A DNA stretch of 64,000 nucleotides, taken from IMG/VR virus record IMGVR_UViG_3300034091_000309; one strand, given 5' to 3'. The notes under the pieces were generated by a model, which ran no database searches, had not been told where the DNA came from, and was given only the letters and a program-made list of their open reading frames with translations. How positions within the stretch are numbered: the stretch's first letter is position 1; each line of letters opens with the position of its first letter. Below are positions 639-61,732 of the stretch, in pieces. The position numbers and the translations under genes were made by a program. This stretch comes from a virus. Its lineage: Duplodnaviria; Heunggongvirae; Uroviricota; Caudoviricetes.

Positions 639-676
639 CCACCCCAGCGACGAAGACCTGTCGCCGGGGACCCCGG
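639..676 (+). repeat. RPE-like GC-rich palindromic element copy (caccccagcgacgaagacctgtcgccggggaccccgg)
   Basis: One copy of the dispersed ~38-bp hairpin repeat; this is the consensus form. Confidence 0.8.
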
Positions 677-682
677 ATGTAC

Positions 683-753
683 TCCCCGTTCGTTCAACGG
701 CAGGACCGAAGCCTCTGGAGCTTCTGATGGGAGTTCGAATCTCTCGCGGGGAG
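683..753 (+). tRNA. tRNA-Gln(CTG) (atypical D-arm)
   Basis: Acceptor strands tccccgt/gcgggga pair, the anticodon loop is ctCTGga, the T-loop is ttcgaat, and CCA is encoded. Confidence 0.5.
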
Positions 754-844
754 CCAAAAAGTTCTCGTTCTTTGAGGTAGTGACTCAGAGGGGCTACAAC
801 GCCGGGATGGAAGGCCCCGGCGCGGGGGATGTATTCGGCCGTCG

Positions 845-915
845 TTCAATGGCAGGACAATGCCCTTTGGAGGCATGGATCTAGGTTCAAGTCCTGGCGG
901 CCGAGCCAAGGAGGG
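845..915 (+). tRNA. tRNA-Gln(TTG)
   Basis: Acceptor strands tcggccg/cggccga pair and the anticodon loop is ctTTGga; it is a paralog of the preceding tRNA with the same D-arm. Confidence 0.55.
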
Positions 916-1068
916 AAATGCGATGGTCCAAGTTGACGATGATAAGTGGATTTGGAAGACGATCCACAATCCATGGACGCGGGAAACATTTTTTATTGAC
1001 CGTTGGCATGGCAAGTGGCGGATCGTCGCCAAATGGGATGTGTACAGGTTGGCTATTGTGTGTGTTCA

Positions 1069-1140
1069 GCGGTGATCGTACAGCGGCCAGTACGCTTGTC
1101 TGCCAGGCAGGACACACGGGTTCGAGTCCCGTTCACCGCT
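1069..1140 (+). tRNA. tRNA-Gly(GCC)
   Basis: Acceptor strands gcggtga/tcaccgc pair perfectly, the D-stem is gtac/gtac, the anticodon stem cttgt/gcagg carries 2 GU pairs, the loop is ctGCCag, and the T-stem is acggg/cccgt. Confidence 0.55.
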
Positions 1141-1151
1141 CCAGAGTTTGG

Positions 1152-1226
1152 GCACCGGTAGCTCAGTGTGGCAGCAGCAGCGGTTTCGTAAACCGCAGGT
1201 CGGGGGTTCGAAGCCCTCCCGGTGCT
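1152..1226 (+). tRNA. tRNA-Thr(CGT) with expanded D-loop
   Basis: Acceptor strands gcaccgg/ccggtgc pair, the anticodon stem gcggt/accgc pairs perfectly, the loop is ttCGTaa, and the T-loop is ttcgaag. Confidence 0.55.
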
Positions 1227-1335
1227 CCAAATCACCCCAGCGACGCGCCTAGAGGGTACCCGGTGTCGCAGCAGGGCCAGAAACCCATTTCGAATGATTT
1301 TTGTGGCGGAGCCATACACGCCTGGACGGCAAGTC

Positions 1336-1348
1336 CTATAATTGCGGG
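1336..1348 (+). promoter_or_regulatory. leaderless-type promoter -10 (TATAAT tgcgggc ATG)
   Basis: The -10 hexamer lies 7 nt upstream of the ATG; the motif TATAAT-N-GCGGNC-ATG recurs 6 times in the window. Confidence 0.45.
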
Positions 1349-1568
1349 CATGAAGATTTTTTTGAGGGTTGAACTGCCCGATAAGTTAGCGCGGGAGTTT
1401 TGGCAGCAGCTTCGCGACTTCGACGTGAAGCACGACCCGCGCCACGAAGACAAGATCATGATTCGCGCATTGAGCGAATCTGACCATTCGGCGGAAGAAA
1501 TGGAGACCATCTTGCGGACGCTGAGCCCTCCGCCTAAGCACATGCGAACGATTCGATTCGATTCATGA
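1349..1568 (+). CDS. small hypothetical protein (73 aa), probably leaderless
   Basis: The protein-like frame starts MKIFLRVELPDKLAREFWQQLRDF and the ATG sits immediately after the TATAAT element. Confidence 0.45.
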
Positions 1569-1578
1569 GAGGTCAGAT

Positions 1579-1651
1579 GGCGGGATTGGCCGAGGGGTCA
1601 GGCACGGGCCTGTGGCACCCGATACAGGAGTTCGAGACTCCTATCCCGCCC
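1579..1651 (+). tRNA. tRNA-His(GTG)-like (mismatch in anticodon stem, no G-1)
   Basis: Acceptor strands ggcggga/tcccgcc pair, the anticodon loop is ctGTGgc, the T-arm is aggag-ttcgaga-ctcct, and the discriminator is C. Confidence 0.45.
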
Positions 1652-1665
1652 CAAGAAAGGCGTAG

Positions 1666-2094
1666 ATGCACGACATTAAGGAGATCCGCAGAAATCCGGA
1701 AGAGTACAAACGCCGCTTAGCCAGACGAATGGGCGCGGAGGAAGCGGCCGAGATGATGGACGAGATTCTTCGGCTGGATGCGAAGGTTCGCAAACGGGAT
1801 GCGGAGACGCAGGAAGTGCGCACCGAGCAGAATCGCGTCAGCAAAGAAATCGGAGATCTGAAACGCAAGGGCGGCGATACTAGGGAACTGGAAAGGTACG
1901 CTGCGGCTTTGAAAAAGCTATACGTTTTGGCGGAGTACGGGAGACTCGAAGAGTTTCTCTCCGAATGCAAAGCGGAAATCGGCGGAACGGCCAGCATTGC
2001 AAAAAGATGGAAGAGATGGATGTGCCGCTTGGTGGCAAGATGCAAGCGGCTAAAGATCGGGCGCGGATGGGCAGCGCGTGGCTCACCAGCGTGA
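1666..2094 (+). CDS. seryl-tRNA synthetase N-terminal coiled-coil (tRNA-binding arm) fragment; truncated serS-like protein or remnant
   Basis: Residues 1-95 (MHDIKEIRRNPEEYKRRLARRMG...NRVSKEIGDLKRKGGDTRELE...) align to the SerRS N-terminal arm; no class-II catalytic core follows. Confidence 0.5.
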   Translation: MHDIKEIRRNPEEYKRRLARRMGAEEAAEMMDEILRLDAKVRKRDAETQEVRTEQNRVSKEIGDLKRKGGDTRELERYAAALKKLYVLAEYGRLEEFLSECKAEIGGTASIAKRWKRWMCRLVARCKRLKIGRGWAARGSPA

Positions 2095-2412
2095 GGTAAA
2101 CTTGCGCAGAGCGGACAAGGCTTTGGCCGCGCCCGATAGTATGGAGACGAAGATGGACCGAGGAGAACGGCGGTACAGGACGGGAAAGGTGACTGGCAGA
2201 CGGTGGCAACGGGCATTGAAATATGCTGCGTTGCTTCAGTCATTCGGGAGAAGGGGCCCGGCAAGTGTGCAGAAGATGATGCGGCCAGGGCTTTATCGCA
2301 AATGGAATATGACTTGGGACTGCCGTCGTGCTCGGCAATGGTGGGCCCGGCATGAGGGCAGGGAGCAGCAAAGAATTATGGATGCCCGGCATAATGGGTT
2401 GCCGGAAGATGT

Positions 2413-2486
2413 GGGGGCGTAGCTCAGTTTGGGAGAGCGTCTGCTTTGCAAGCAGAGGGTCGCGGGTTCGATGCCTGCCGCCTCCA
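2413..2486 (+). tRNA. tRNA-Ala(TGC)
   Basis: Canonical cloverleaf: acceptor gggggcg/cgcctcc with G3:U70, D-arm gctcagtttgggagagc, anticodon loop ttTGCaa, CCA encoded. Confidence 0.8.
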
Positions 2487-2546
2487 CCACGATAGTGAAC
2501 AGTTATCAGCGGACAGCTTACAATTGAAAGGCTCGATCAACAATTT

Positions 2547-2619
2547 GCCGACTGAGCTAGTGCGGTCATAGCATTGGTCTGAAAAGCCAACCAATCCGGT
2601 CCGACTCCGGAAGTCGGCA
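2547..2619 (+). tRNA. tRNA-Phe(GAA)-like with atypical T-loop
   Basis: Acceptor strands gccgact/agtcggc pair, the D-stem is gcta/tagc, the anticodon loop is ctGAAaa, and the T-stem tccgg/ccgga closes loop tccgact. Confidence 0.4.
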
Positions 2620-2638
2620 CCATCCCCGAGGAGACCGC

Positions 2639-2917: not shown

Positions 2918-3077
2918 ACGATAGTCGGCAAAGCATCGGAGAGTGGCCACCATATCGGAGAAGCAATGAAGGTCGAGAGACTCAGCAGTACCACCACTAA
3001 GATCATCGAGGAAACAGAGGTTCTGGTTGACGGAAGAAAAGGAAAGTACGTCACAGAATACACAGTGGAGTTCAAAT

Positions 3078-3151
3078 CGGAGAGTGGCCAAGTGGGGAAG
3101 GCCCCGGTTTCGGGAACCGGAAATGCGTGAGTTCGAGCCTCACCTCTCCGA
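3078..3151 (+). tRNA. tRNA-Pro(CGG)
   Basis: Acceptor strands cggagag/ctctccg pair, the D-arm is ggccaagtggggaaggcc, the anticodon loop is ttCGGga, the T-arm is gtgag-ttcgagc-ctcac, and CCA is encoded. Confidence 0.7.
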
Positions 3152-6774: not shown

Positions 6775-6827
6775 ATAATTCGGGGCTCCGGCGGCGGGTC
6801 TATGCCGCTGGGGTGAAGGATAAAATC

Positions 6828-8892: not shown

Positions 8893-8931
8893 GCCACCCC
8901 ACGGACTTGGACTTGTTCGCAGGGAACCCGG
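8893..8931 (+). repeat. RPE-like palindromic element copy (degenerate)
   Basis: The sequence reads gccaccccacggacttggacttgttcgcagggaacccgg. Confidence 0.6.
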
Positions 8932-9128: not shown

Positions 9129-9166
9129 CCACCCCAGCGACGAAGACCTGTCGCCGGGAACCCCGG
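9129..9166 (+). repeat. RPE-like palindromic element copy
   Basis: The sequence reads ccaccccagcgacgaagacctgtcgccgggaaccccgg. Confidence 0.8.
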
Positions 9167-13988: not shown

Positions 13989-14025
13989 CTACTTTCCACC
14001 CCACAGACCAAGACCTGTCTGTGGG
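13989..14025 (+). repeat. RPE-like palindromic element copy with compensatory stem variant (acagac/gtctgt)
   Basis: The sequence reads caccccacagaccaagacctgtctgtggggaccccgg. Confidence 0.75.
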
Positions 14026-14040
14026 GACCCCGGTTAATTT

Positions 14041-14075: not shown

Positions 14076-14390
14076 ATGGCAACCGAGAACCTGCTTTACC
14101 TAATTGATGTGGAGATTGTGCGGCTGATGGAGGCCCGCAAGATCCTAGAGGCCGTGGCAACGGCTCCCACCAAGAAGCCTGGACCTAGACCAAGCTCCCA
14201 TCACAAAAAGCCGGGGTCCCCAACGACAGGTCCACGTCGTTGGGGTGGTAAGCCGGAAGCCGCAGAGATCCGGAAGCACATCATAACACCTGCGGGGCGG
14301 GCCCGCATCGGAAGAGCCACGCGCCAGCGCTGGGCGGCATTGAGGAGTATCCGGCCAGAGGCTTCCAGGCTGGCCAAACTGCCTTTATGA
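14076..14390 (+). CDS. hypothetical protein with in-frame RPE-derived segment (SPTTGPRRWGG)
   Basis: Leaderless ATG; the RPE copy at 14221-14258 is read through in frame. Confidence 0.5.
   Translation: MATENLLYLIDVEIVRLMEARKILEAVATAPTKKPGPRPSSHHKKPGSPTTGPRRWGGKPEAAEIRKHIITPAGRARIGRATRQRWAALRSIRPEASRLAKLPL
14221..14258 (-). repeat. RPE-like palindromic element copy, inverted orientation, inside a CDS
   Basis: The sequence reads ccggggtccccaacgacaggtccacgtcgttggggtgg. Confidence 0.75.
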
Positions 14391-16152: not shown

Positions 16153-16236
16153 CCACCCCACGGACTTGAACCTGTCCCTTCACCCCGCAGCACAGAGATC
16201 GCGTTGCGGGGACCCCGAATCCGTGGGGACCTCGGA
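16153..16236 (+). repeat. composite of two nested or adjacent RPE-like elements
   Basis: The sequence reads ccaccccacggacttgaacctgtccc...gcgttgcggggaccccgaatccgtggggacctcgg. Confidence 0.6.
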
Positions 16237-17566: not shown

Positions 17567-18683
17567 AACCGCACTTGCAGTCAATGTGCCGCAACCGGCT
17601 CAGCTTCAGGTGAGCCGGGAGTGGGAGAATCACCTGGAGCTGATCCAGCGCACGGTGGCGCCGGGACTGACCCCGGAAGAGTTTCAGTTGTTTTGCCATG
17701 TGGCCCGTGTCCGCCACCTGGACCCGTTGCAGCGGCAGATCCACGCCGTCAAGCGCACGACTTGGGACCCGGAGAAGAGCGGCTACGTGGAGAAGATGAC
17801 GATTCAGACCGGCATTGACGGCTACCGGTCGATCGCCAACCGGACCAATATCTACATGCCCTCTGACAAGCTGCCACAGGTCGACGACGGCGGCAAACCG
17901 GATCTGCGGGTTACGGTGTGGGTGAAGAAGTTTTCGCCGAATGATGGAGCATGGCACGAGTTCGGCGCCACGGCCTACTACCGCGAGTTCGTTCAGACAA
18001 GAAAAAACAAGCAGAGCGGAAAGGTGGAGCCGAACTCCATGTGGGAGAAGATGCCCATCAACCAACTGACCAAGTGCGCGGAGGCACTGGCGCTGCGCCG
18101 CGGCTGGCCGGAGGAGTTGGGCGGCATCTATGTGGACGAAGAGATGCCCAGCCAGGAGCCAACCTACCTGCCGCCGGAGAACACGAAGCTGGACAAGACC
18201 AGGCGTGAGCTGGGCACACTCAAAACCTCGGCAGAGCCCAACCGGGGCCACGGGAACGAAGGCACACAGCGGCCACCGGAGCAAGAGATTTGCGCCGAGT
18301 GCCGAACGGTCAACGGTCACACGGAGGAGTGCAAGCTGAATTCCAAAAACGCGAAGCAGGCCAACCGGGGTCCCCAGCGACAGGTCCAAGTTGCTGGGGT
18401 GGAGAAGAAAAGCAAGCGGGAGGCCTGGGACAGCTATCCGGGCCACGATCCCAAGACTCATATCTCTTTCGCTGATGGGATTCAGCTCTTCGAGCTGCAG
18501 CGGAAACTGAGCATTGCCGAGGAGCAGGTCAAGGAATTGCTGGACCGGGAGTTCGAGATTCAGCATCGTCCGCTTATCCGGCAAGACCAGTTCCAACTGG
18601 TGCTGGATACCATCCAGAAGCAATTCGGGGAAAAGCCGGAAAAGGGCAACCTGGAGTCTCTGGAAGGTATGTTCTCGGAGTGA
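17559..18683 (+). CDS. recT: RecT-family single-strand annealing protein
   Basis: RBS ggaggtg precedes the ATG; typical RecT core FQLFCHVARVRHLDPLQRQIHAV...IQTGIDGYRSIANRT. Confidence 0.65.
   Translation: MPETALAVNVPQPAQLQVSREWENHLELIQRTVAPGLTPEEFQLFCHVARVRHLDPLQRQIHAVKRTTWDPEKSGYVEKMTIQTGIDGYRSIANRTNIYMPSDKLPQVDDGGKPDLRVTVWVKKFSPNDGAWHEFGATAYYREFVQTRKNKQSGKVEPNSMWEKMPINQLTKCAEALALRRGWPEELGGIYVDEEMPSQEPTYLPPENTKLDKTRRELGTLKTSAEPNRGHGNEGTQRPPEQEICAECRTVNGHTEECKLNSKNAKQANRGPQRQVQVAGVEKKSKREAWDSYPGHDPKTHISFADGIQLFELQRKLSIAEEQVKELLDREFEIQHRPLIRQDQFQLVLDTIQKQFGEKPEKGNLESLEGMFSE
18366..18402 (-). repeat. RPE-like palindromic element copy inside the recT coding region
   Basis: The sequence reads ggggtccccagcgacaggtccaagttgctggggtgg. 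Confidence 0.65.
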
Positions 18684-22002: not shown

Positions 22003-22141
22003 AGTAGATGGGATAATTGCTAGTTCATTCATAAACGGTTTCGACGTAACTGAACCCCTTACTTTTATCTTCAACTTAGTGATACACCGCACCGCTTGCA
22101 AAGGGATTTATAGCGTGGATAATCGCCATGGAGTTTCTTGG

Positions 22142-22179
22142 CACCCCACGGGCGATAGACCTACCCGTGGGGACCCCGG
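22142..22179 (+). repeat. RPE-like palindromic element copy
   Basis: The sequence reads caccccacgggcgatagacctacccgtggggaccccgg. Confidence 0.7.
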
Positions 22180-25513: not shown

Positions 25514-26985
25514 GCGAGATCGACAACTACCGGCTTCCCGACAAAGCGCCTGAGCCCCCCGAGGATGATCTCACCTTGGACGAAGGTCTTTCACCCCTTC
25601 GATATGGACCCATCGCCGGGGACCCCGAGTTGCCGGCCAATGTGGACGCCGAGAAGACCATCCTGGGCGCGATCCTGCTGGACAATGCGGCCTTCCGCGA
25701 AGCTGCGGAATGTCTGGAGTCGGACGACTTCAGCCTGGACTCACACCGCCGCATCTTTCTGCGCATGGCCGAGCTGGTCGACACCGATCACGCAGTCGAT
25801 ATCGTCACCCTGGTGGCGAAACTGAGCCAATACAAGGAAGTCGCAGCCGTGGGCGGCGTAGCTTACCTGGCCGACCTGACGATGGGGCTACCGCGGCGGC
25901 CGGTGATCGAGGAGTACATCCGCATCGTCAAGGACAAGAGTCTGCTGCGCAAGGTCATGGGCATCTGTTCGACGGCCATTGCCCGCGCGGCCGACCAATC
26001 GGAAACCGCCCTGGAAGTCTTGGGAGCGGCGGAGTTGGCTCTTGCCGACCTGTTGCCAAAGTACATCCGCTATCGGCCGGAGGAGATTCTGGTCAGCGCC
26101 ACGGATTTCGCGGCCGACGCGCCCAGGGGTGTGGACTGGGCGGTGTGGGGAGTGATGCAGAGGGGGGGCAACGGGGTCATTGCGGCGGACGGCAAGACGG
26201 GCAAGAGTTTGCTGGCCATCCACCTGGCGCTCCATCTCGCCACGGGAACGGACTGGCTGGGTTTGCCGGTGACGCGGCCGGTGCAGGTGGCGCTCATCAG
26301 CCGGGAGGACGATCCGGGAGAGACGGCGCGGCGCATCGGCTCTATGGTGGCGGGCTCGGCTGCGGAGTTGAGGTATCTGGCCACGCTGGATGAGCGGTTC
26401 TGGCTCTCGACGCGGGCGCAGATGCCGACCTTCCTGCTGGAGAACAAAAAAGAGGTGCGGGAGATCACGGAGGCGCTGAAACACCGCAAAGTCGAGATCG
26501 CCTTCTTCGATGTCTTCCGCAGCCTGTGGACGGGGGATGAGAACGACGCCCAGGAGGAGAGCAAGGTGCTGGAGGTGTTGCGGGGGATTCAACGGGAGGC
26601 GGGCTGCTCGGTGGTCCTGCTGCACCACTTGAACAAGGGCGACAGCGTGAACCCTTTTCAGAAGCTGCGCGGTTCGACGGCGCTGAGCGGCTGGTGGGAG
26701 TGGGGTATGGGCATCTCCATCGTGAACCAGGAGGAGGACGAGACGGCCTGGGTGCGGGAGATCCGCTTCCAGACCAAGGCGGCGCGGGCGCACAGCCGCA
26801 TTCACTACCGGATCGCGGGGCCGGAGGAGGCCATGCGCATGGAGCGGACGGAGGCGCCTGAGCGGGCAGAGGCACGGCCGCGGCGCAAGGTGGCGGAGAT
26901 CGTCTCAGGGGGCAGAGATCAAGGGGCAGTGGTCAGAGAGATGCCACCGCCGGTCAAGAACTACTACGAAAAGGAAGAAGCATAA
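25510..26985 (+). CDS. replicative helicase: DnaB N-terminal domain fused to RecA-like/AAA_25 (RepA-type) ATPase
   Basis: DnaB-N sequence AEKTILGAILLDNAAFREA...; Walker A DGKTGKS; an RPE copy is read in frame at 25592-25629. Confidence 0.65.
   Translation: MSEIDNYRLPDKAPEPPEDDLTLDEGLSPLRYGPIAGDPELPANVDAEKTILGAILLDNAAFREAAECLESDDFSLDSHRRIFLRMAELVDTDHAVDIVTLVAKLSQYKEVAAVGGVAYLADLTMGLPRRPVIEEYIRIVKDKSLLRKVMGICSTAIARAADQSETALEVLGAAELALADLLPKYIRYRPEEILVSATDFAADAPRGVDWAVWGVMQRGGNGVIAADGKTGKSLLAIHLALHLATGTDWLGLPVTRPVQVALISREDDPGETARRIGSMVAGSAAELRYLATLDERFWLSTRAQMPTFLLENKKEVREITEALKHRKVEIAFFDVFRSLWTGDENDAQEESKVLEVLRGIQREAGCSVVLLHHLNKGDSVNPFQKLRGSTALSGWWEWGMGISIVNQEEDETAWVREIRFQTKAARAHSRIHYRIAGPEEAMRMERTEAPERAEARPRRKVAEIVSGGRDQGAVVREMPPPVKNYYEKEEA
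25592..25629 (+). repeat. RPE-like palindromic element copy read in-frame within the helicase N-terminus
   Basis: The sequence reads caccccttcgatatggacccatcgccggggaccccgag. Confidence 0.65.
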
Positions 26986-31360: not shown

Positions 31361-31399
31361 TTACCCCAACGGCGATAGACCTACCGTTGGGGACCCCGG
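31361..31399 (+). repeat. RPE-like palindromic element copy (intergenic)
   Basis: The sequence reads ttaccccaacggcgatagacctaccgttggggaccccgg. Confidence 0.7.
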
Positions 31400-34749: not shown

Positions 34750-34948
34750 GTACGCGGTGATTCATCACCCCAAGGCCAAGAAGGATCTGGCCGGCAACGA
34801 GGAAACGGTCAAGAGCGCGATCTTGACCGACGTGACGCGGATTCTGGCGGTGACGCTGGAGGAAGTGTCGATTTTGGCGGCGCGGACGATTCCCGAGGAG
34901 TACCTGGACAAGCTGGAGCAGGTGGAGATCGTGGTGCGCCCTTTTTAA
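34724..34948 (+). CDS. small hypothetical protein (74 aa)
   Basis: RBS ggaggacgagg precedes the ATG. Confidence 0.4.
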   Translation: MAAKGKLFEYAVIHHPKAKKDLAGNEETVKSAILTDVTRILAVTLEEVSILAARTIPEEYLDKLEQVEIVVRPF

Positions 34949-34949
34949 C

Positions 34950-35028
34950 GCCCCAAGCACGAAGGCCTGTGCTTGGGGACCCCGCATTAGTACCCCAGGG
35001 ATGTGGACCTATCCGTGGGGGCCCCGCG
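34950..35028 (+). repeat. two adjacent RPE-like elements (intergenic)
   Basis: Copies cgccccaagcacgaaggcctgtgcttggggaccccgc and taccccagggatgtggacctatccgtgggggccccgcg. Confidence 0.65.
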
Positions 35029-35258: not shown

Positions 35259-35296
35259 CAACCCCACGAACTGAGACCTGTCCGTGGGGACCCCAA
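35259..35296 (+). repeat. RPE-like palindromic element copy
   Basis: The sequence reads caaccccacgaactgagacctgtccgtggggaccccaa. Confidence 0.65.
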
Positions 35297-36692: not shown

Positions 36693-36730
36693 CCACCCCA
36701 GCGACGTGGACCTGTCGCTGGGGACCCCGG
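36693..36730 (+). repeat. RPE-like palindromic element copy
   Basis: The sequence reads ccaccccagcgacgtggacctgtcgctggggaccccgg. Confidence 0.75.
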
Positions 36731-36960: not shown

Positions 36961-37197
36961 TTAGAGGTCGGCGACCAGCGTGCTGCTGATGATGCTGAAC
37001 GCAGAGTTGAGGCCCTTGGCCAGTTGTGTCATGCCGACGACTGCGCCAAAGGCGATGAGAGCGACGACCAAAGCATACTCGACCAGGTCCTGGCCTTCCT
37101 CAGCGCCCCACGGACTTAGACCTGTCCGTGGGGGCCCCGGAACGCGGTTCTTCAGCTCCTGGAACGTCACATACAGCTTGAGAAGCAGGTTGTTCAT
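36961..37197 (-). CDS. flp: Flp/Fap-family type IVb pilin with an RPE-derived insertion in the leader peptide
   Basis: RBS gaggag precedes the ATG; mature-like segment QDLVEYALVVALIAFGAVVGMTQLAKGLNSAFSIISSTL; the leader contains VPGPPRTGLSPWGAEE encoded by the RPE copy at 37104-37140. Confidence 0.55.
   Translation of the reverse strand: MNNLLLKLYVTFQELKNRVPGPPRTGLSPWGAEEGQDLVEYALVVALIAFGAVVGMTQLAKGLNSAFSIISSTLVADL
37104..37140 (+). repeat. RPE-like palindromic element copy (inside the Flp pilin leader on the opposite strand)
   Basis: The sequence reads cgccccacggacttagacctgtccgtgggggccccgg. Confidence 0.7.
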
Positions 37198-37572: not shown

Positions 37573-38718
37573 ATGCGCAATACGACGATGCGGGAAAAGT
37601 TGGATGGGATTCTGACGCCCATGGGGTTGGAGTCTGCGGATGCGCTGGTCGCCAGAAGCAATGACGAGATATTAGCTACGGTGGGAGCGATGCGACGAAA
37701 GCAGAGTAAGGTCATCAGAAAACCAGGGTTCCCGGAAGCGGATTTTGGCAGAAAAGGTAAAAAACATGGGCTCGAAGCAGGTTTACCTCCCCGTTATGTG
37801 CCTCCGCCCAGACTCGCGAATCCATTCTCAGTTCATGCTCACTCCATCGCAGTAGTTCCACCCCCGCCGGAAGCTGCCAAGCCGGGGTCCCCGACGACAG
37901 GTCCTAGTCGTTGGGGTGAAAAGCCGGTCCTGGTTCCTGCGCCGGCCGCTTTGGAAGACAAATCTAAAACAGTCCTTCCTATCAAACCAGAGGTCGTTCC
38001 TTCCGATGTGCAGCAGCCCGCCAAGGATGAAGCGTTGCCAACTCTTCTTGGCGATAAACCTGCCGCGGCTGAGACCGCGCCCGCGCAAAGCGCTGATCGA
38101 CTAACCCTCATCCATCCTCTTTTCGAGCCCCAGTTACCCTCCCCATCTTCTGAACCGCTGGCAACTCCGTCTGCGCCGCCCAACCTGAATTGGCCGCAGA
38201 AGCCTTCGCCCTTCGACGCCGACCTGAAACCCATCGAGAGCAAACTCAGGGATGCGCGAACAAGGGTCGCTTTTACTCTGGAACAGTTGCGGGAGCAGGA
38301 GAAAAACCTGGACACGCAACTCTGCGGTGTGCGGTCGCAGCTCGAAAAGTACAGGGAGCGTGTGCGGCAGATCAACGAAGCCATCGCCGCCTGCGTCTTG
38401 CTGGCCGAGCAGTCCGCCGGCCTGGAGCCGGGGCTGCTCGCGGCCGGGGGGACGCATCATAAGACGCCGGGCTTCGCAACGGGGACACCGCACATTACCA
38501 TGCCGGACAAGAACGATCCCACCATCCTGCGCATGGAGGATATGCGCCAGTTCTTCAAGGAACACCCAGGCAAGGAATGGTCGGCAGGAACGATTCTACC
38601 CCGATTGCCGGTTGAGAAACAGGCTCACGCCAAATCGTACCTTCCCTCCGCACTTACCAATCTGAGGAAGATGGATGAAATACGGTGCGTCAGCAGGGGA
38701 AGATATCAGGCGAAATAA
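37573..38718 (+). CDS. proline-rich hypothetical protein (381 aa)
   Basis: RBS aaaaggagc precedes the ATG; an RPE copy (minus orientation) is read in frame at 37882-37918. Confidence 0.5.
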   Translation: MRNTTMREKLDGILTPMGLESADALVARSNDEILATVGAMRRKQSKVIRKPGFPEADFGRKGKKHGLEAGLPPRYVPPPRLANPFSVHAHSIAVVPPPPEAAKPGSPTTGPSRWGEKPVLVPAPAALEDKSKTVLPIKPEVVPSDVQQPAKDEALPTLLGDKPAAAETAPAQSADRLTLIHPLFEPQLPSPSSEPLATPSAPPNLNWPQKPSPFDADLKPIESKLRDARTRVAFTLEQLREQEKNLDTQLCGVRSQLEKYRERVRQINEAIAACVLLAEQSAGLEPGLLAAGGTHHKTPGFATGTPHITMPDKNDPTILRMEDMRQFFKEHPGKEWSAGTILPRLPVEKQAHAKSYLPSALTNLRKMDEIRCVSRGRYQAK

Positions 38719-44895: not shown

Positions 44896-45007
44896 CCAAC
44901 GCTCAAGACCGTTGAATAATTCCACGGTGGAAATGTGGAGCACTTTACCGGCGTAACCTATGCTGGCGCGGGAGGGTAACCCAGCATCCGGTACTCGCAG
45001 TCCTTTC

Positions 45008-45043
45008 ACCCCAACGGCATGGACCCGTCGTTGGGGACCCCGA
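45008..45043 (+). repeat. RPE-like palindromic element copy
   Basis: The sequence reads caccccaacggcatggacccgtcgttggggaccccg. Confidence 0.75.
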
Positions 45044-45102
45044 TCAAGGCTCACGCTTTCCGCTATGAGAGCGTTCCCTGCCACTTCACTGCCCTCCTTT
45101 AC

Positions 45103-45140
45103 CACCCCCGCGAACAAAGATCGTTCGCCGGGGACCCCGG
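45103..45140 (+). repeat. RPE-like palindromic element copy
   Basis: The sequence reads ccacccccgcgaacaaagatcgttcgccggggaccccgg. Confidence 0.7.
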
Positions 45141-46354: not shown

Positions 46355-46711
46355 ATGGAAGCTCAAGTGAAGCTGCTGCTGGATCTGCGCGGACTGAGAA
46401 AAGAGGCCGGGGTCAAGCTGGAAAAAGTCTTGCAACAGTGCGGGCTGGAACGCTCGGTTTACGCGCGGTGTGAAAAGGGCGCCGAGCCCAAGTTGGGGAC
46501 GGCGCTCAAGGTGGCGCGCTTGCTGCAGATGCCGGTGGAAGAGATCTGGAGCCTCGCGGATGAACCACCCCAACGACGTGGACCTATCGTTCCCACCCCA
46601 AGAATCGAAGACCAATTCTTGGGGGCCCCGGTTGTTGGGGACCCCGGCGATGAAGGAACGGAAACGGGAGCGGAGAGCGAAAAGGAAAATGACCAATCCG
46701 CATCATTGTGA
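46355..46711 (+). CDS. XRE-family HTH regulator (tandem paralog) with an RPE-derived C-terminal tail
   Basis: Contains LEKVLQQCGLERSVYARCEKGAEPKLGTALKVARLLQMPVEEIW; the tail PPQRRGPIVPTPRIEDQFLGAPVVGDPG is encoded by the composite RPE at 46565-46647. Confidence 0.5.
   Translation: MEAQVKLLLDLRGLRKEAGVKLEKVLQQCGLERSVYARCEKGAEPKLGTALKVARLLQMPVEEIWSLADEPPQRRGPIVPTPRIEDQFLGAPVVGDPGDEGTETGAESEKENDQSASL
46565..46647 (+). repeat. composite RPE-like element including the variant hairpin CCCCAAGAATCGAAGACCAATTCTTGGGGG
   Basis: The same variant hairpin also occurs at 36876-36915. Confidence 0.65.
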
Positions 46712-48103: not shown

Positions 48104-48931
48104 ATGAGCGAAGAATTGTTTCCAACAGAACCGGAAGCGCGGCAGCGGATTGTGAGTTGCCGGCCAATCAGCTTTACCTCGGAGAGCATCCACGGGATTG
48201 AGAAGGGGCTGAAGAGCCAGACGCGGCGGGTGATCTATCCCCAGCCCGAAGGAGCGATTGAGCCGCATCCCGAAAAAGTTGGCCGATGGCGGAGGGTCCA
48301 GGAAGCCGATCACCCCGCCGACGAAGACCTGTCGCCGGGGACCCCGCCCGACGGCCCTTTGTGGAAATGCCCTTACGGTGTGCCGGGCGACCGGCTGTGG
48401 ACGCGGGAGATCTGGGCGCGCGTGGAGCCCTATTCCACCCCCCGGACGAAGACCTGTCCGCAGGGACCCCGGCAAAATCCGGATGTGCTGGAAAAGTACG
48501 ATCTGCCGATTGCTTGGCGGGTGGAGAAGGACCCGGCGCTGCTGGAGTTCTGGCGAAAGCGGGTGATCTACTTGGCTGACTTTCCCGGCAAAGAACCCCA
48601 GGAATGCGGGCGAGGGGCGAGCGATAACAAGTGGCGCAGCCCGGTGACGATGCCCCGGTGGGCCTCGCGGCATCTGCTGGAGGTGGTCCAAGTGCGCGCC
48701 GAACGGGTGCAGGAGATTACGGAGGAAGATGCGCGGGCGGAAGGTGTGGAGTTTAGGAAGATAAGCGGGCGGAGGATTCACTTCCGGAACTATACTCCCC
48801 GGCTCATTGAGTTCGACTGCTACACCGCCGTTGATAGTTACAGAACTTTATGGGATGCGATCAACGGCCGCAAAAATCCCTGGGCGGCGAATCCCTGGGC
48901 TTGGCCCATCACCTTCAGAAGGCTCCCATGA
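48104..48931 (+). CDS. ASCH-like domain protein with two in-frame RPE insertions
   Basis: Contains ISFTSESIHGIEKGLKSQTRRV...PYGVPGDRLWTREIWA; RPE copies lie at 48311-48346 and 48435-48472. Confidence 0.45.
   Translation: MSEELFPTEPEARQRIVSCRPISFTSESIHGIEKGLKSQTRRVIYPQPEGAIEPHPEKVGRWRRVQEADHPADEDLSPGTPPDGPLWKCPYGVPGDRLWTREIWARVEPYSTPRTKTCPQGPRQNPDVLEKYDLPIAWRVEKDPALLEFWRKRVIYLADFPGKEPQECGRGASDNKWRSPVTMPRWASRHLLEVVQVRAERVQEITEEDARAEGVEFRKISGRRIHFRNYTPRLIEFDCYTAVDSYRTLWDAINGRKNPWAANPWAWPITFRRLP
48311..48346 (+). repeat. RPE-like element copy in-frame (encodes HPADEDLSPGTP)
   Basis: The sequence reads caccccgccgacgaagacctgtcgccggggaccccg. Confidence 0.75.
48435..48472 (+). repeat. RPE-like element copy in-frame
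   Basis: The sequence reads ccaccccccggacgaagacctgtccgcagggaccccgg. Confidence 0.7.
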
Positions 48932-53138: not shown

Positions 53139-53447
53139 ATGGAGAACGACTCGACCGTCCCGCCCCATATTCTGATGTCGCAATGGGTGGTCTATGCGCA
53201 TCCGCGCGACTACGCGGACAAGTATGTGCTGCGGCGATGGGATCTGCGGAGAATCTCTGGCGAACCACCCCACGGACGTGGACCTGTCCGCGGGGACCCC
53301 GATAGCGAGGAACCAGTGATGGTTCCGACCGACGAGATGGCGTTGGCGACGACGCTGGAGGAGATCCGCAAGCAGGTTCCGCCGGGATTGTTCCGGCTGA
53401 GACGCTTCGCCGACGACGATCCGTGTATTGTGGAAGTGTGGGTATGA
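53139..53447 (+). CDS. hypothetical protein with in-frame RPE segment
   Basis: An RPE copy is read in frame at 53265-53301. Confidence 0.4.
   Translation: MENDSTVPPHILMSQWVVYAHPRDYADKYVLRRWDLRRISGEPPHGRGPVRGDPDSEEPVMVPTDEMALATTLEEIRKQVPPGLFRLRRFADDDPCIVEVWV
53265..53301 (+). repeat. RPE-like element copy
   Basis: The sequence reads ccaccccacggacgtggacctgtccgcggggaccccg. Confidence 0.75.
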
Positions 53448-53448
53448 G

Positions 53449-53525
53449 CACCCCAACGGCATGGACCCGCCGTTGGGGGCCCCGCACACACGCCGCGCCG
53501 ACGTGGACCTGTCGGCGCGGGAAAA
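53449..53525 (+). repeat. two adjacent RPE-like element copies
   Basis: First copy gcaccccaacggcatggacccgccgttgggggccccgc, then a degenerate cgccgacgtggacctgtcggcgcggg. Confidence 0.6.
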
Positions 53526-54255: not shown

Positions 54256-54764
54256 TGAAGGCGGCGATGGTTGGCAAGCGGTTAGGCGATGTGTGCGCGC
54301 GGGGATGGAAATGTCTACGGCCGAGGATCAAATCCATCCTTGATGCTGGGGTTGAAGTGATGGGTGTGGTGTGCCTCTGCCTGTGCGGAGCCATTGTGGC
54401 CCTCGATTGTCTTCAACATCGCTGGGAGGGATGGGTCGTCGGCGTTGTGATGCTTGCCTTGTGCGTGGTGACGGTGCTGCGCAATACCGCTCAGAAAAAT
54501 CTTGTGCAGGTCCAGAAGCAGTACGTCGGGTTTCTGCAGACCGAAAACCGCCAGCTCCGGGAGATCGCCCTGTCGGCCGTGGCCTTGAAGATCGCCATCG
54601 AACATGGCTTCAAGCCGAACCTGGAGGCGCTGAACCGGGATCTGGATGCGGTGTTTACGATCCAGAAGGTGGATATTCACACCGTCCCGCCAGACCCCCA
54701 CCCAGATGAATTAGCACCCCAACGACGAGGAGCTGTCGTTGGAGACGCCGAGGCCCCGGTTTGA
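54256..54764 (+). CDS. membrane protein, hypothetical
   Basis: GTG start after RBS gggaggt; hydrophobic segments are present; an RPE-derived tail lies at 54714-54750. Confidence 0.4.
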
Positions 54765-54870: not shown

Positions 54871-55575
54871 GTGCAAATTTCTTCCCTTTCCGACCGCCCC
54901 AAGGATCAAAGACCGATCCTCGGGAATCCCAGCGAAACTCCTTCCCTGATCTTGCGTGAGCGCCGGGCGCGGGCGGCCGGGATCTCTCTGCCCCAGCGCG
55001 AAGAACAGTCTGCTCTCTCTTCTCCACCGCCGGCGCCCTGCCTTCCCCTGCGCAGCCCAGGCCCGCTCATCATCGACCTCTACCGCCGCGATTTGGCGGG
55101 GAAGAAGTGTCGCCGTGTGACCAAGGCGGACGGCGACGAGGCGCGGCGGCTGATCCAGGAGATGATCGCCTTCTGCCGGGCTCATGACGCCGCCGGATTG
55201 GCGGCGCCGCAGGTGGGGGTCTATGTGCAGTTGGCCATCGCCATCATGGCGCCCAAGTCTGTCGAAATCCTTGTGAACCCGGAGATCGTGAACCTGGGGG
55301 GCCGGGAGCTGCTGGAGTACGAGGGCTGCCTGAGTCTGCCGCCCCCCGACCAGAACCAAGCGCGGGTCTGGCGCAGCGAGATCGCGCAGGTGCGCGGCGG
55401 GACGCTGGAAGATCCGGAGGCCGGCCGGGTGAAGGTCTACAAGGGCTGGCCGGCGCGCCTGGTGCAGCACGAGATCGACCACCTGCAGGGGCGCTTCTTT
55501 ATCGACCGGTTGAAGCCGGTGGCGCGGGGGCTGGTGCTCAGGCGGTATGAGAAGTTCTTGAAAGAGCAGTTGTGA
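54871..55575 (+). CDS. def: peptide deformylase (5-prime start uncertain; probably a non-ATG start further downstream)
   Basis: Def motifs GLAAPQVG, EGCLS and QHEIDHLQG are present. Confidence 0.6.
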   Translation: MQISSLSDRPKDQRPILGNPSETPSLILRERRARAAGISLPQREEQSALSSPPPAPCLPLRSPGPLIIDLYRRDLAGKKCRRVTKADGDEARRLIQEMIAFCRAHDAAGLAAPQVGVYVQLAIAIMAPKSVEILVNPEIVNLGGRELLEYEGCLSLPPPDQNQARVWRSEIAQVRGGTLEDPEAGRVKVYKGWPARLVQHEIDHLQGRFFIDRLKPVARGLVLRRYEKFLKEQL

Positions 55576-58228: not shown

Positions 58229-58250
58229 AGGCCCGTGGGCCGTTTTTTGC
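58229..58250 (+). terminator. rho-independent terminator
   Basis: The hairpin ggcccgtgggcc is followed by gtttttt. Confidence 0.5.
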
Positions 58251-58287
58251 ACCCCAACGACATGGACCCGTCGTTGGGGACCCCGGT
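58250..58287 (+). repeat. RPE-like element copy
   Basis: The sequence reads gcaccccaacgacatggacccgtcgttggggaccccgg. Confidence 0.75.
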
Positions 58288-60505: not shown

Positions 60506-60519
60506 GATCTGTTCCTTCC

Positions 60520-60804
60520 TCAGTTCTGCCCGGATCGCCGGGCGGCGTCGTCGGCCAGTTCGCCCGCCGTCTTCGAGTCGGGCCAGCAGGTGTAGACTTC
60601 TTCCCTGCTCAGCAGACGTTCCCGGAACTCCGGCGGCGGAAGAGGAACATTGAGCTTGGAAAGCGGAGCGGCCAGCACCTCGCCGCCGGGGTTGATCTTG
60701 AGCGCATGGGCTTCCCGCACCGCGTCGGCCGGGGAGGTGGCGCGCACCAAACAGGCGCCGCGAAAGCCGCCGCCGGCAAACGACAGGTACCACCATTCGG
60801 TCAC
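60520..60804 (-). CDS. hypothetical protein (94 aa)
   Basis: Protein-like frame. Confidence 0.45.
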   Translation of the reverse strand: MTEWWYLSFAGGGFRGACLVRATSPADAVREAHALKINPGGEVLAAPLSKLNVPLPPPEFRERLLSREEVYTCWPDSKTAGELADDAARRSGQN

Positions 60805-60828
60805 TTCGTATCCCTCGGATTTCTGAGC

Positions 60829-60864
60829 ATCCCAGCGACGAAGACCTATCGCCGGGAGCCCTGC
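60829..60864 (+). repeat. RPE-like element copy
   Basis: The sequence reads catcccagcgacgaagacctatcgccgggagccctg. Confidence 0.65.
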
Positions 60865-60880
60865 TTTGCCCTGCCGGGCT

Positions 60881-60911
60881 GGGTTGGTTTTGGTTCGCTA
60901 TCAAAAGGCAG
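60881..60911 (-). promoter_or_regulatory. conserved upstream box for leftward genes (plus strand ...GGTTCGCTATCAAA; minus strand TTTGATAGCGAACC...)
   Basis: One member of a family of 6 copies, each 25-60 nt upstream of a minus-strand start codon. Confidence 0.5.
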
Positions 60912-60939
60912 CTCCTAGCTCTCAGCTAAAAGCTCAAGG

Positions 60940-61239
60940 CTAACGACTCTGCTTCACGGGCACGGGCAGCGCATCGCACATCACGATCAGCGGCTCACCG
61001 GAAAATTTGGGAAGGTCCACATGCAGATTCCCGGCCGGCGCCTCACAGGGCGGGGTCTGGACCCAGATCGTCCATTGGCCGCCGGCGAGCTGGGGGCTGG
61101 TGCGCCAGCCGACGCGGGGAGCTGGTCTGGACAACAAAGCGACCGCCAAGATGAGAAGGGCAGTTGCCGCCAAGATGAGAAGGGCAGTTGCGGCAAGAAA
61201 ACCACTGACGACCATGACGATCAAAGGTTTGTTCATCAT
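60940..61239 (-). CDS. small membrane protein with internal tandem repeat (ATALLILA x2)
   Basis: A 24-bp direct DNA repeat gatgagaagggcagttgc.gc.aag occurs twice at 61141-61190. Confidence 0.45.
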   Translation of the reverse strand: MMNKPLIVMVVSGFLAATALLILAATALLILAVALLSRPAPRVGWRTSPQLAGGQWTIWVQTPPCEAPAGNLHVDLPKFSGEPLIVMCDALPVPVKQSR

Positions 61240-61265
61240 CTTTGCTTCTTTCTGGCGCTGCGCAC

Positions 61266-61305
61266 CCGTTATGTTGCGTTGATTTGGCCCGCTATCAAAG
61301 AGCAG
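61266..61305 (-). promoter_or_regulatory. conserved upstream box (minus strand TTTGATAGCGGGCCAAATCAACGCAACATAAC), a TTGATA-N17-ACATAA-like promoter
   Basis: Family member, upstream of the gene 60940..61239. Confidence 0.5.
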
Positions 61306-61333
61306 CTCTTCGCTGTTAGCTTCTAGCCAGAGG

Positions 61334-61633
61334 CTAATGGTTGATGGTGATGGTTTCGGCGCCGATCGACTGCAGGGTGCGCTCGACTTCAAGAAGGAAG
61401 CGGTGGTAGTTGCAGACGTAGAGACTCCCCTGCCGCGAGGCCCAGACGGCATCCTCTCCGCACATGCCCACGCGGTCGCACTCGATCGGGGCCGGTCGCG
61501 CGTCTGGACTCGGGGTCCCCAACGATGGGTCCATATCGTTGGGGTGATGATCGATGGCCCGCCAGACGGCGTCTTCGGCCATCGGCGGAAGGCCGGCTAA
61601 AACCTTGGCTCGGTATTCCTTGCCTAAATCCAT
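61334..61633 (-). CDS. hypothetical protein (99 aa) with an in-frame RPE segment (HPNDMDPSLGTPSPD)
   Basis: RBS gaggcaac precedes the ATG; an RPE copy at 61511-61549 is read in frame. Confidence 0.45.
   Translation of the reverse strand: MDLGKEYRAKVLAGLPPMAEDAVWRAIDHHPNDMDPSLGTPSPDARPAPIECDRVGMCGEDAVWASRQGSLYVCNYHRFLLEVERTLQSIGAETITINH
61511..61549 (-). repeat. RPE-like element copy, inverted orientation, inside a CDS
   Basis: The sequence reads cggggtccccaacgatgggtccatatcgttggggtgatg. Confidence 0.7.
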
Positions 61634-61654
61634 AGTTGCCTCAGTTTTCTTGGC

Positions 61655-61686
61655 GCTGTGCGCCGGTTGGTGGTGCGTTTAGTCGC
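61655..61686 (-). promoter_or_regulatory. conserved upstream box for leftward gene
   Basis: The plus strand reads gttggtggtgcgtttagtcgcctatcaaacc. Confidence 0.45.
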
Positions 61687-61694
61687 CTATCAAA

Positions 61695-61732
61695 CCACCC
61701 CAGCGACGTGGACCTATCGCCGGGGACCCCGC
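61695..61732 (+). repeat. RPE-like element copy
   Basis: The sequence reads ccaccccagcgacgtggacctatcgccggggaccccgc. Confidence 0.75.

Follow-up and report, generated by a model that had tools for sequence, protein, structure and literature searches.

How did a 38-nt GC-rich palindrome come to stand some 38 times in one viral DNA, in many cases within protein-coding genes? The question is raised by a stretch of 64,000 nt (hereafter, the window) from the Caudoviricetes record IMGVR_UViG_3300034091_000309 of IMG/VR. The window has the appearance of part of a temperate phage or prophage with ~60% G+C. It contains 22 tRNA genes, genes for replication and modification (a P4-type tyrosine integrase, RecT with a PD-(D/E)XK nuclease, DnaB, and three DNA methyltransferases), and genes for a Ro/TROVE protein, an HNH endonuclease, a GH108 endolysin, a peptide deformylase, and PspA. 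No close relative was found in the GenBank phage collection, and literature searches with sequence strings of the element gave no relevant match. The initial annotation had described a dispersed hairpin with compensatory stem changes, inserted in frame in genes in the manner of Rickettsia palindromic elements (RPEs). Our analysis indicates that the hairpin is probably a non-autonomous mobile element of 38 nt, belonging to a family of Acidobacteriaceae and their phages, which invaded this phage lineage massively and recently.

To count the copies, we searched the window with a loose pattern (CCCCA-N8-GACC-N6-TGGGG, up to two mismatches) and obtained 27 matches, compared with 0.97 expected. None of 100 dinucleotide-preserving shuffles of the window attained 27 matches, which excludes a composition artefact. 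A covariance model (CM) trained on 135 distinct copies and run on the window with filters off detected 32 full-length copies (E ≤ 7.4e-6), of which 27 are on the plus strand and five on the minus strand. The model also recovered three degraded copies (54894, 16180, and 53496) and the two halves of an interrupted outer copy (46564-46591 and 46632-46647). A profile search of the window with nhmmer gave ~36 solid copies and fragments, adding fragments at 45831 and 45895. The window thus holds ~38 copies (32 full-length and ~6 degraded). The earlier figure of at least 40 was a slight overcount, while every position listed with it was recovered.

An ungapped alignment of the 135 distinct copies gave the consensus CCA-CCCC-A-nCGAC-GAAGACCT-GTCGn-T-GGGG-ACCCC-GG. 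The unit consists of a 5′ [C/T]CA, a 10-bp stem opening with CCCC, an 8-nt loop with an invariant GACC, a 5-nt ACCCC bulge, and a closing pair, and its 3′ end reads ACCCCG[G/A]. The consensus and the 10-bp stem with an 8-nt loop proposed at the outset were correct. The terminal bases pair with each other (C-G in 77, T-A in 14, and G-C in 2 of 119 isolated copies; 0.19 above expectation), and no pairing was found outside this pair. Therefore, the structured unit is exactly 38 nt long and ACCCC forms a 5-nt bulge on its 3′ side. In the 10-bp helix, 95% of the cells were paired, compared with 36–47% when the 3′ partner was slid by 1–3 columns and 83.5% when the partners were shuffled. Double changes were found in 151 stem cells against 55.6 ± 5.8 in the shuffles, none of 500 of which attained the observed value, and stem columns 9/26 and 10/25 take CG, GC, AU, and UA. 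Since the copies had been gathered by a pattern that did not demand complementarity at the variable stem positions, this covariation is not circular. When folded as single-stranded DNA, either strand gave −11 to −13 kcal/mol, with z of approximately −4.5 to −4.8 in three of the four tested sequences. Read in any of the six frames, the unit is essentially free of stop codons. Neither the GTAG or CGTC tag that is a hallmark of repetitive extragenic palindromic (REP) sequences at the hairpin end nor a T-run was present. The loop variants GTGG, ATGG, and ATAG are common in the window, and most copies in the bacterial genomes described below (host copies) have GAAG.

Evidence for insertion came from filled and empty sites. 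In a clean pair of related viral contigs, L004 holds 45 nt missing from L009, and the direct repeat AGCATT (in the element orientation) flanks the segment. In the window, the 3′ stem arm of the outer copy at 46564-46647 is broken by exactly 45 nt holding the inner copy. Among the 119 isolated copies, direct repeats in the flanks peaked at distances of exactly 42 nt (z ~10–11) and 45 nt (z ~6–8) and hardly elsewhere. An exact 4-nt repeat abutting the fixed 38-mer was found at 12 copies (0.63 expected) and a 7-nt repeat at 2 (0.03 expected), and the duplicated or flanking 4-mers are diverse (TGGT, CTCC, CGAG, ACCT, CCGA, and others). The 4-nt duplication is the dominant class and the 7-nt duplication the second, and an event adds 42 or 45 nt, equal to 14 or 15 codons. 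The signal came from intergenic and gene-end copies (z of 11.7 and 8.8, n = 64), not from intragenic ones (n = 33). Therefore, the two lengths are a property of the insertion process, and reading-frame selection was ruled out as their cause. With these target duplications and filled and empty sites, the nesting, the element-free relatives, and the 15-residue insertion described below, the initial reading of a dispersed hairpin with compensatory stems, inserted in genes as RPEs are, is upheld.

Tandem arrays in host genomes have the form [4-mer][38]n with one 4-mer throughout each array. All 19 close pairs (<120 bp) were in direct orientation, mostly with a 42-nt period, and slippage or re-insertion at the duplication is the probable way in which the arrays lengthen. 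In ten loci of different genomes, the element occupies one position in the 3′ arm of a palindrome of the type that flanks RAYT-like transposase genes, with an ACCT duplication and differing stem variants. In many copies of the 42-nt class, the flank repeat runs into the element's own 3′ end, so that CCGG plus 4 nt is found on both sides. The possibility that the CCGG upstream of the duplication is a decayed neighbouring copy was ruled out, as the upstream 38 nt are no more similar to the consensus than random sequence is.

For at least 13 copies of the window, the evidence supports an in-frame location within genuine genes, including those for DnaB, RecT, and a methyltransferase. At the copy at 48435, ...WARVEPY|STPRTKTCPQGPRQN|P-DVLEK... 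is the reading of both the window protein and a relative with 87% identity, while 11 homologs (50–60% identity) of the protein encoded by 48104-48931 read ...WARVEPY-P-xVLEK... without the 15-residue segment. Judged from this alignment, the copy is a precise 15-residue (45-nt) in-frame insertion. The label 'ASCH' once given to this protein found no Pfam match, and only PHROG families of no assigned function were matched. The copy at 53265 is an insertion within a conserved small protein, whose ortholog in the element-free phage relative L147 is without the segment. The nested pair at 46564-46647 took the place of the stop codon of a small helix-turn-helix (HTH) protein and lengthened its C-terminus; the L147 ortholog ends with ...EEIWGLRK. 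The copy in RecT, a protein that matches Pfam RecT, has conserved sequence on both sides in the alignment with the ortholog of another element-free relative, L131. The copy in DnaB sits between an N-terminal peptide conserved in L131 and the DnaB N-terminal domain. A start-associated or ribosome-binding role of the DnaB copy, which is followed by TTG, was ruled out by the conservation of this upstream peptide. Both copies in the N6/N4 DNA methyltransferase fall inside the stretch matched by the Pfam domain, but this part of the family is hypervariable and alignment cannot prove insertion there. Homolog evidence thus supports in-frame copies in DnaB, RecT, the N6/N4 methyltransferase, the protein of 48104-48931 (two copies), the protein of 53139-53447, the small HTH protein, and others. 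The comparisons with the 11 homologs (copy at 48435) and with the element-free orthologs show that these segments were inserted and are not ancestral.

The methyltransferase gene (27017-28807) has a further peculiarity. NKRDVWTIA just before the first copy and NKRSVWEIA past the second represent one conserved motif found twice, and between the copies is a stretch (…AARAAGGAHDNPF…) similar to the C-terminal part of homologs. A mosaic junction or a rearrangement at the copies is suggested by this arrangement. A similar motif duplication was observed in the methyltransferase homolog P0010.

Translation of the element peptides was inferred from reading frames conserved on both sides of the copies. 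Nearly all sense copies are read in one and the same frame, that of the PQRRGPVVGDP-like peptides, and antisense copies give PGSPTTGPRRWG-like or RGPQRQVxVxGV-like peptides. In the host locus L080, an ABC-ATPase gene, whose start codon is fixed by an ATGA overlap with the upstream gene, has in-frame copies at both ends. Intragenic copies were in the sense orientation in 28 cases and antisense in 24, without preference for either. According to a crude classifier, gene interiors are depleted of copies compared with random positions (42% vs 67% in host loci and 19% vs 43% in the window), and intragenic copies prefer linkers and termini.

The orientation of the copies is tied to the DNA strand. 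In 109 independent host loci, the form with the ACCCCGG tail was on the G-rich strand in 82 and on the other strand in 27 (p = 1.3e-7), and the ratio was 69 vs 15 where |skew| > 0.03 (p = 2e-9). The bias was present in each gene context, with ratios of 16:5 (co-gene), 22:10 (anti-gene), and 48:14 (mixed). Across the 64 kb, GC skew is positive in every 2-kb segment, and 27 of the 32 copies are on the plus strand. The positive skew persists in the regions of minus-strand genes at 40.5-45.1 kb and 58.5-63.9 kb (+0.205 at 42-44 kb), so it is not set by the direction of transcription; it suggests unidirectional replication across the window. At the targets, the left-flank positions −7 to −4 are 59–78% pyrimidine. 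Among host targets, 14% of the reconstructed empty sites had a minimum free energy of ≤ −8 kcal/mol compared with 5% of random sites (p = 0.003), and some targets are the loops or arms of pre-existing hairpins. Taken together, the signs of fold recognition, the strand-tied orientation, and the asymmetric target suggest that a single DNA strand is acted upon, rather than RNA or double-stranded DNA. In these strand and target features, the element resembles IS200/IS605 and REP-RAYT systems, which act on single-stranded DNA at replication forks. As a side observation, a palindromic repeat family GGCACGACTnAAGTCGTGCCCTGAC, the third in this analysis, was found in L055, L018, L045, L012, L129, and L139 (downstream of a RAYT gene), and its loop is a recurrent target of the element.

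The family is not phage-specific but is common to Acidobacteriaceae chromosomes and unrelated viral contigs. A strict pattern matched 10 IMG/VR contigs that otherwise share no DNA with the window and at least 120 loci of cellular genomes. Among the matches listed, nearly all of the cellular loci were from Acidobacteriaceae, and the carriers included Terracidiphilus, Tunturibacter, Silvibacterium, strain TAA166, and many metagenome-assembled genomes. The fetched loci contained more than 160 element copies. Some orthologous copies are kept between species with ~80% identical flanks (L032/L080/L017, L087/L093, and L024/L111). Beyond the copy by which each locus was ascertained, 13 sites were found in 905 kb of host loci (one per ~70 kb) and three sites in 68 kb of unrelated viral contigs. 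The window has 28 sites in 64 kb (one per 2.3 kb), and the element is ~30 times denser there than in the host loci. No copies were found in 38 kb of the syntenic phage relatives L131, L134, and L147. L131 and L134 have ~70% nucleotide identity to the window across exonuclease-RecT-integrase-DnaB, and L147 is syntenic with 28.6-57 kb; a metagenome scan for helicase relatives gave one further relative. Because these three relatives carry no copies, the invasion of the phage lineage is recent relative to its divergence from them.

The working of such a mobile element can be outlined as follows. A folded single strand, not duplex sequence, would be recognized, as the covariation and conservation imply. 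The mid-stem is free to vary as long as pairing is kept, and the CCCC/GGGG base, the GACC of the loop, the bulge ACCCC, and the closing pair are conserved. Insertion is strand-specific, with the ACCCCGG-tail form on the G-rich strand whatever the gene direction, as expected of a process on the single-stranded fork template. Each insertion duplicates 4 nt (commonest) or 7 nt of the target, and tandem arrays of the form [4-mer][38]n form at the duplication. Since 42 and 45 nt are both divisible by three and no frame of the unit contains a stop codon, copies are tolerated in the linkers and termini of genes, where they are read as Pro/Gly-rich peptides. The enzyme would act in trans from the host, the candidate being the HUH/Y1 RAYT-like family that is abundant in Acidobacteriaceae hosts. 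The density in the phage may be due to abundant single-stranded replication and recombination intermediates in a phage with RecT and an exonuclease; alternatively, the specific host may be unusually rich in the element.

Acidobacterial RAYT-like Y1 transposases form a distinct group, 'TIRYT' (Di Nocera et al. 2013, PMC3733652). Four acidobacterial RAYT-like proteins were rebuilt as queries from the supplement of PMC3733652, and thousands of homologs of them were found in Terracidiphilus and Terriglobus. On either side of the Y1 transposase genes stands a palindrome with the consensus tC-CCAGGTCTCAA-aatc-GAGACCTGG-GGCACCC. It is like the element in its stem of ~10 bp opening with CCC and its C-rich 3′ tail, and it is on the G-rich strand in a ratio of 18:3, the same polarity as that of the element. 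Such palindromes were found in the flanks of L136-L146 and in L004, L021, L034, L041, L048, L071, L079, L096, L100, L104, L107, L108, L114, and L129, and none was found in the window. When the ~70 window proteins were scanned for a phage-encoded mobilizer, a P4-type integrase and an HNH_3 endonuclease were obtained but nothing transposase-like, and the HNH_3 endonuclease is also present in the element-free L147. A crude HUH...YxxxNP regular expression gave 0 matches over all six-frame open reading frames (ORFs). As these scans of the window recovered no gene for a RAYT, another HUH enzyme, or a transposase, the mobilizing enzyme is presumably supplied by the host. A trans-acting RAYT-like protein appears to be the best candidate, and this is the weakest step of the account.

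Several observations weigh against the account. Neither a transposase nor an HUH protein was found among the ~70 window proteins with Pfam, PHROG, and NCBIfam, and tblastn with the four RAYT-like proteins gave no match in the window and 130 loci. Thus, the RAYT/IS200-like mobilizing gene suggested in the initial annotation was not found in the window by tblastn, domain scans, or the HUH expression. RAYT-like genes in four independent contexts (L136-138, L139, L140-145, and L146) are flanked by the different palindrome, and the sole element copy near them is 1.4 kb away. The RAYT association was therefore rejected as a demonstrated link and kept as a trans-acting candidate. The classical Y1 mechanism accounts for neither the target duplications nor their two sizes (4 and 7 nt). 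In loci of 8 kb, GC skew is a mere proxy of replication direction. Fully clean filled and empty DNA pairs number only one, and a recognizable duplication is kept in only ~20–30% of the solitary copies. Finally, the ~30-fold excess in the window could partly reflect an unusually element-rich host. It is conceivable, if doubtful, that the machinery is neither RAYT/IS200 peel-and-paste nor DDE, but one that uses folded strands at forks, makes 4- or 7-nt duplications, adds whole codons, and prefers replicating phage DNA.

Other explanations were weighed against the same evidence. The element would be a conventional MITE (miniature transposable element with inverted repeats) if it were moved as duplex DNA by the DDE transposase of a host insertion sequence, with the stem arms as terminal inverted repeats and a staggered cut giving the 4-nt duplication. 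The dominant fixed length of the duplications, the precise element ends, and the insertion into other palindromes, as some IS3-family elements do, agree with this. Acidobacteriae phages are also reported to be the MITE-richest phage group (PMC11602168), and another, larger MITE with 15-bp inverted ends occurs in these genomes (L094). However, 38 nt is under the described MITE sizes of 50–800 bp. The arms covary freely, with CG, GC, AU, and UA at two positions, which fits recognition of a fold and not of identical duplex ends, and the conserved parts are asymmetric (5′ CCA vs 3′ ACCCCGG). Symmetric duplex transposition predicts neither an orientation tied to one strand nor a target 4-mer with an excess of pyrimidines on one strand. 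In ~1 Mb of flanks, we saw no full-length insertion sequence bounded by such ends, and we consider a conventional MITE unlikely. The larger element, at 4226-4372 of L094, is a miniature element of ~139–147 bp with perfect 15-bp terminal inverted repeats ATGCGATTCTCCAGC and flanking direct repeats CTGATGCG; it holds a 38-nt hairpin copy, and its empty site is in L122 near 1174-1181. Templated copying, either by template switching at stalled forks or by nick-primed reverse transcription of a hairpin RNA, and in both cases with short microhomology between the element 3′ end and the target as the source of the variable flanking repeats, would explain the flank repeat that extends into the element 3′ end in many 42-nt-class copies. 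The upstream 38 nt that are not a decayed copy, duplications of more than one length (4, 7, and occasionally other), and the strand bias are also consistent with it. In contrast, the boundaries are base-precise and set by the terminal base pair, and the inserted length is sharply 42 or 45 nt with no spread. With no poly-A-like or primer-binding feature and no reverse transcriptase seen in the window, such copying is improbable.

Still less probable is that the copies are functional cis-elements selected in the phage, such as RNA stem-loops for termination, stabilization, or tRNA-array processing, or protein-binding sites. Conservation of the loop and tail, the several copies between tRNA genes and past genes, and the depletion from gene interiors are what such a role would predict, and REPs elsewhere in bacteria have secondary roles of this kind (PMC3733652). 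However, three syntenic relatives have no copies, unrelated phages and host chromosomes at large carry this very element, and many copies are in coding sequences in either orientation, with the orientation following GC skew and not genes. In searches of Rfam 15, the window matches at the gathering score were tRNAs only, and no match at E ≤ 1 was found in 27800-37300, which contains 11 copies. A structured RNA motif, raised as an alternative when the element was first described, is not supported, given the 28:24 ratio of sense to antisense intragenic copies, the absence of an Rfam match and a T-run, and the tracking of GC skew. A compositional or ancestral-sequence artefact has a negligible probability. 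The genome is ~60% G+C and some gene regions around copies are too variable to prove insertion, but the excess of matches (27, where 0.97 are expected and none of the 100 shuffles comes as high), the covariation, the insertion relative to 11 homologs, and the element-free orthologs exclude chance or ancestral sequence as the source.

Compared with known systems, the mobile element works like a REP or an RPE and is a member of neither family. It shares with REPs and REPINs a GC-rich hairpin of 20–40 nt, a conserved single-stranded tag, a high copy number, stem covariation, clusters, and occasional genic copies; moreover, its host clade is rich in RAYT-like genes, whose flanking palindrome is of similar architecture and polarity. 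In contrast, the element is not beside the RAYT-like genes examined, has no GTAG or CGTC tag, always forms direct tandem pairs where REPINs and BIMEs are inverted, and, although depleted from gene interiors, has a large share of its copies within genes. The single-strand peel-and-paste of REP/RAYT makes no target-site duplication, whereas the element makes duplications of 4 or 7 nt and is itself inserted into a RAYT-type REP. The REP/RAYT link proposed initially therefore holds as a likeness in working only; the different palindrome at RAYT-like genes, the target duplications, and the exclusively direct tandems speak against more. RPEs are ~100–150 bp long and confined to Rickettsia. They are also palindromic repeats in frame in coding genes that add peptides in surface or linker regions, but the element is unrelated to them in sequence, is 38 nt long with a defined duplication, is common to bacteria and phages, and is open in essentially six frames. 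With IS200/IS605 and PATEs, the element has in common the recognition of single-strand DNA hairpins, an orientation tied to the replication strand, and asymmetric ends. In IS200/IS605 and PATEs, however, the two subterminal hairpins differ from each other, insertion is 3′ of one specific tetra- or pentanucleotide, and no duplication is made, whereas the element has one hairpin, diverse pyrimidine-rich 4-mers, and duplications. By size (<50 nt) and nesting, the nearest analogues are the small dispersed repeats (SDRs) of Nostoc and other cyanobacteria. Elhai and co-workers (Genome Research, 2008) reportedly described SDRs as hairpins of 21–27 nt with compensatory changes, insertion seen in strain comparisons, nesting, and no known enzyme. 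The SDRs belong to another phylum and have another sequence, and we know of no report of a fixed 3n insertion length, a replication-strand bias, or phage invasion for them.

A census of MITEs in prokaryotes and viruses covered elements of 50–800 bp with inverted repeats of 10–15 bp or more (Nadal-Molero et al. 2024, PMC11602168). MITEs were found in 0.01% of viral sequences, were ~90% intergenic, and had their largest phage group in Acidobacteriae phages (n = 99; PMC11602168). The statement of the initial annotation that nothing comparable is described for phages was thus too strong, although the census scored elements of ≥50 bp. MITEs and the 38-nt element are both non-autonomous, make duplications (2–10 bp for MITEs), and are shared by host and phage, hence useful for host assignment. 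The element differs in being 38 nt long, fold-defined, and strand-biased, with >30 copies in one phage, many of them genic. Its 10-bp arms are inverted repeats, at subterminal positions and covarying. What is new is the combination of tiny size, fold-defined recognition, replication-strand polarity, whole-codon duplications, and heavy invasion of a phage. The copies in the window are listed in Table 1.

Table 1 Copies of the 38-nt element in the 64-kb window. Bits and E-values are those of the covariance model (CM).
Copy	Position	Strand	Context	CM score
Full copy	639..676	+	Spacer between tRNA-Asn (562-637) and tRNA-Gln (683-756)	64.9 bits, E 1.9e-15
Copy with 1-nt deletion	6779..6816	-	Intergenic, upstream of tRNA-Ser; 6-nt direct repeat TTATCC, 45 nt total	E 5.8e-8
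Degraded copy	8894..8931	+	Between tRNA-Met (8813-8891) and tRNA-Lys (8942-9017)	E 7.4e-6
Full copy	9129..9166	+	Between tRNA-Lys (9053-9126) and tRNA-Arg (9170-9246)	E 2.3e-13
Full copy	13996..14033	+	Intergenic, past tRNA-Met (13881-13952)	E 1.3e-14
Full copy	14211..14248	-	In putative ORF 14058-14390; flank repeat CCGGCTT 42 nt apart	E 6.1e-15
Degraded copy	16180..16218	+	More nhmmer fragments at 16151-16236	E 7.6e-4
Antisense copy, in frame, NRGPQRQVQVAGVE	18365..18402	-	RecT linker, between Zn-ribbon-like motif and conserved C-terminal domain	E 2.3e-13
Intergenic copy	22141..22179	+	Gap between integrase and AlpA-like genes; segment missing from syntenic L131 (alignment)	E 5.3e-9
In-frame copy, LSPLRYGPIAGDPEL	25591..25628	+	N-terminal linker of DnaB helicase; DnaB domain from aa 41	E 2.6e-10
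In-frame copy, SPQRYGPIVGDPD	27938..27975	+	Variable region of N6/N4 DNA methyltransferase	E 8.1e-13
Second in-frame copy, FSPHGRGPVVGDPDF	28094..28131	+	Same N6/N4 DNA methyltransferase as at 27938	E 3.5e-11
Copy with 1-nt insertion	29412..29450	+	N-terminal region of gene 29350-30189, longer there than L147 ortholog	E 1.3e-8
In-frame copy, FPPQSQGPASGDPGF	30808..30845	+	Coding sequence (CDS) 30436-31242, phrog_19005 family (PHROG match aa 11-266)	E 3e-11
Intergenic copy	31361..31399	+	No ORF spans the copy	E 3.7e-8
Direct tandem pair, unit 1	34948..34985	+	Intergenic, 42-nt spacing	E 2.6e-10
Direct tandem pair, unit 2	34990..35027	+		E 4.5e-9
Copy reading PQPHELRPVRGDPNW	35259..35296	+	In putative ORF 35001-35834	E 4.4e-10
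Intergenic copy	36693..36730	+	Past gene 35843-36670	E 3e-15
Copy	37103..37140	+	In ORF 36980-37387 ('Flp pilin' label unconfirmed)	E 1.2e-11
Antisense copy, translated KPGSPTTGPSRWGEK	37882..37919	-	Variable central part of CDS 37573-38718, flanked by segments alignable with the L147 ortholog	E 1.4e-13
Copy	45006..45043	+	5′ end or upstream of minus-strand HTH ORF 44440-45117	E 8.7e-12
Degraded copy	45102..45140	+	Adjoins the copy at 45006	E 3.2e-7
Nested pair	46564..46647	+	Outer 46564-46591 + 46632-46647, inner 46593-46631; in C-terminus of small HTH protein	
In-frame copy, 42-nt insertion, exact CCGA duplication	48310..48347	+	phrog_874 family protein 48104-48931	E 2.7e-12
In-frame copy, 45-nt/15-residue STPRTKTCPQGPRQN insertion	48435..48472	+	phrog_874 family protein 48104-48931	E 8e-13
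In-frame insertion, PPHGRGPVRGDPD...	53265..53302	+	Conserved small protein 53139-53447	E 3.5e-14
Copy at ORF junction	53448..53485	+	Junction of 53139-53447 and 53423-54220; then partial copy 53496-53517 (E 1.9e-3)	E 1.1e-10
Degraded copy	54714..54751	+	C-terminal extension of ORF 54183-54764; L147 ortholog without the segment	E 4.1e-7
Degraded copy	54894..54932	+	Upstream or N-terminal extension of peptide deformylase	E 6.3e-4
Intergenic copy	58249..58286	+	Past endolysin gene; flanked by TTTTT direct repeats	E 2.4e-13
Degraded copy	60827..60864	+		E 2.3e-6
Copy reading HHPNDMDPSLGTPS	61510..61547	-	In putative minus-strand ORF 61334-61633	E 1.7e-12
Intergenic copy, exact 7-nt duplication TATCAAA (38 + 7 = 45 nt)	61695..61732	+		E 1.1e-12

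Some further features of the window were recorded. The array of 22 tRNA genes (562-13952) is interleaved with genes for a protein with a seryl-tRNA synthetase N-terminal domain (1666-2094) and an alanyl-tRNA synthetase-like fragment (3203-4096), and it includes a gene for a Ro/TROVE and VWA protein (6991-8526). Bacterial Ro proteins usually pair with Y-RNA-like RNAs; no such RNA was found at the Rfam gathering score. The P4-type tyrosine integrase (20510-21934), with Arm-binding, central, and catalytic domains, and an AlpA-like protein (22195-22419), an excisionase or regulator, are encoded amid the genes of the replication module. A CAGAGAT heptamer tandem repeat (29298-29321), immediately upstream of the gene that starts at 29350, has three units in the window and two in L132 and L133, contigs of other samples that are otherwise 99.95% identical to the window, and the difference is frame-shifting. 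This 7-nt difference was ruled out as an event of the element, as it is a change in the heptamer tandem repeat. An ORF of 607 residues on the minus strand (42305-44128) had no match in Pfam, PHROGs, or NCBIfam. It adjoins the genes for an Ig-like (Hoc/tail-like) protein (40484-41707) and a DUF2846 protein, and a role of its product in receptor binding or at the surface is possible.

Transposable elements are rare in phages; a phage with more than 30 copies of one, many in replication and modification genes, is hence unusual. The mobile element illustrates an escape from purifying selection through a length of 38 nt, open frames, and the addition of exactly 14 or 15 codons. It provides a very small sequence-defined substrate for hairpin-directed, strand-specific insertion, and raises the question of which enzyme joins single-strand polarity with target duplication. 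It also offers a natural case of peptide segments built into proteins, with element-free orthologs for comparison, and a sequence tag for assigning uncultured phages to Acidobacteriaceae, a dominant yet poorly studied soil group. If a not-yet-recognized machinery were indeed at work, the element would serve generally, and without disturbing the frame, as a source of new peptides in the linkers and termini of phage and host proteins, and would mark phages as belonging to Acidobacteriaceae hosts.

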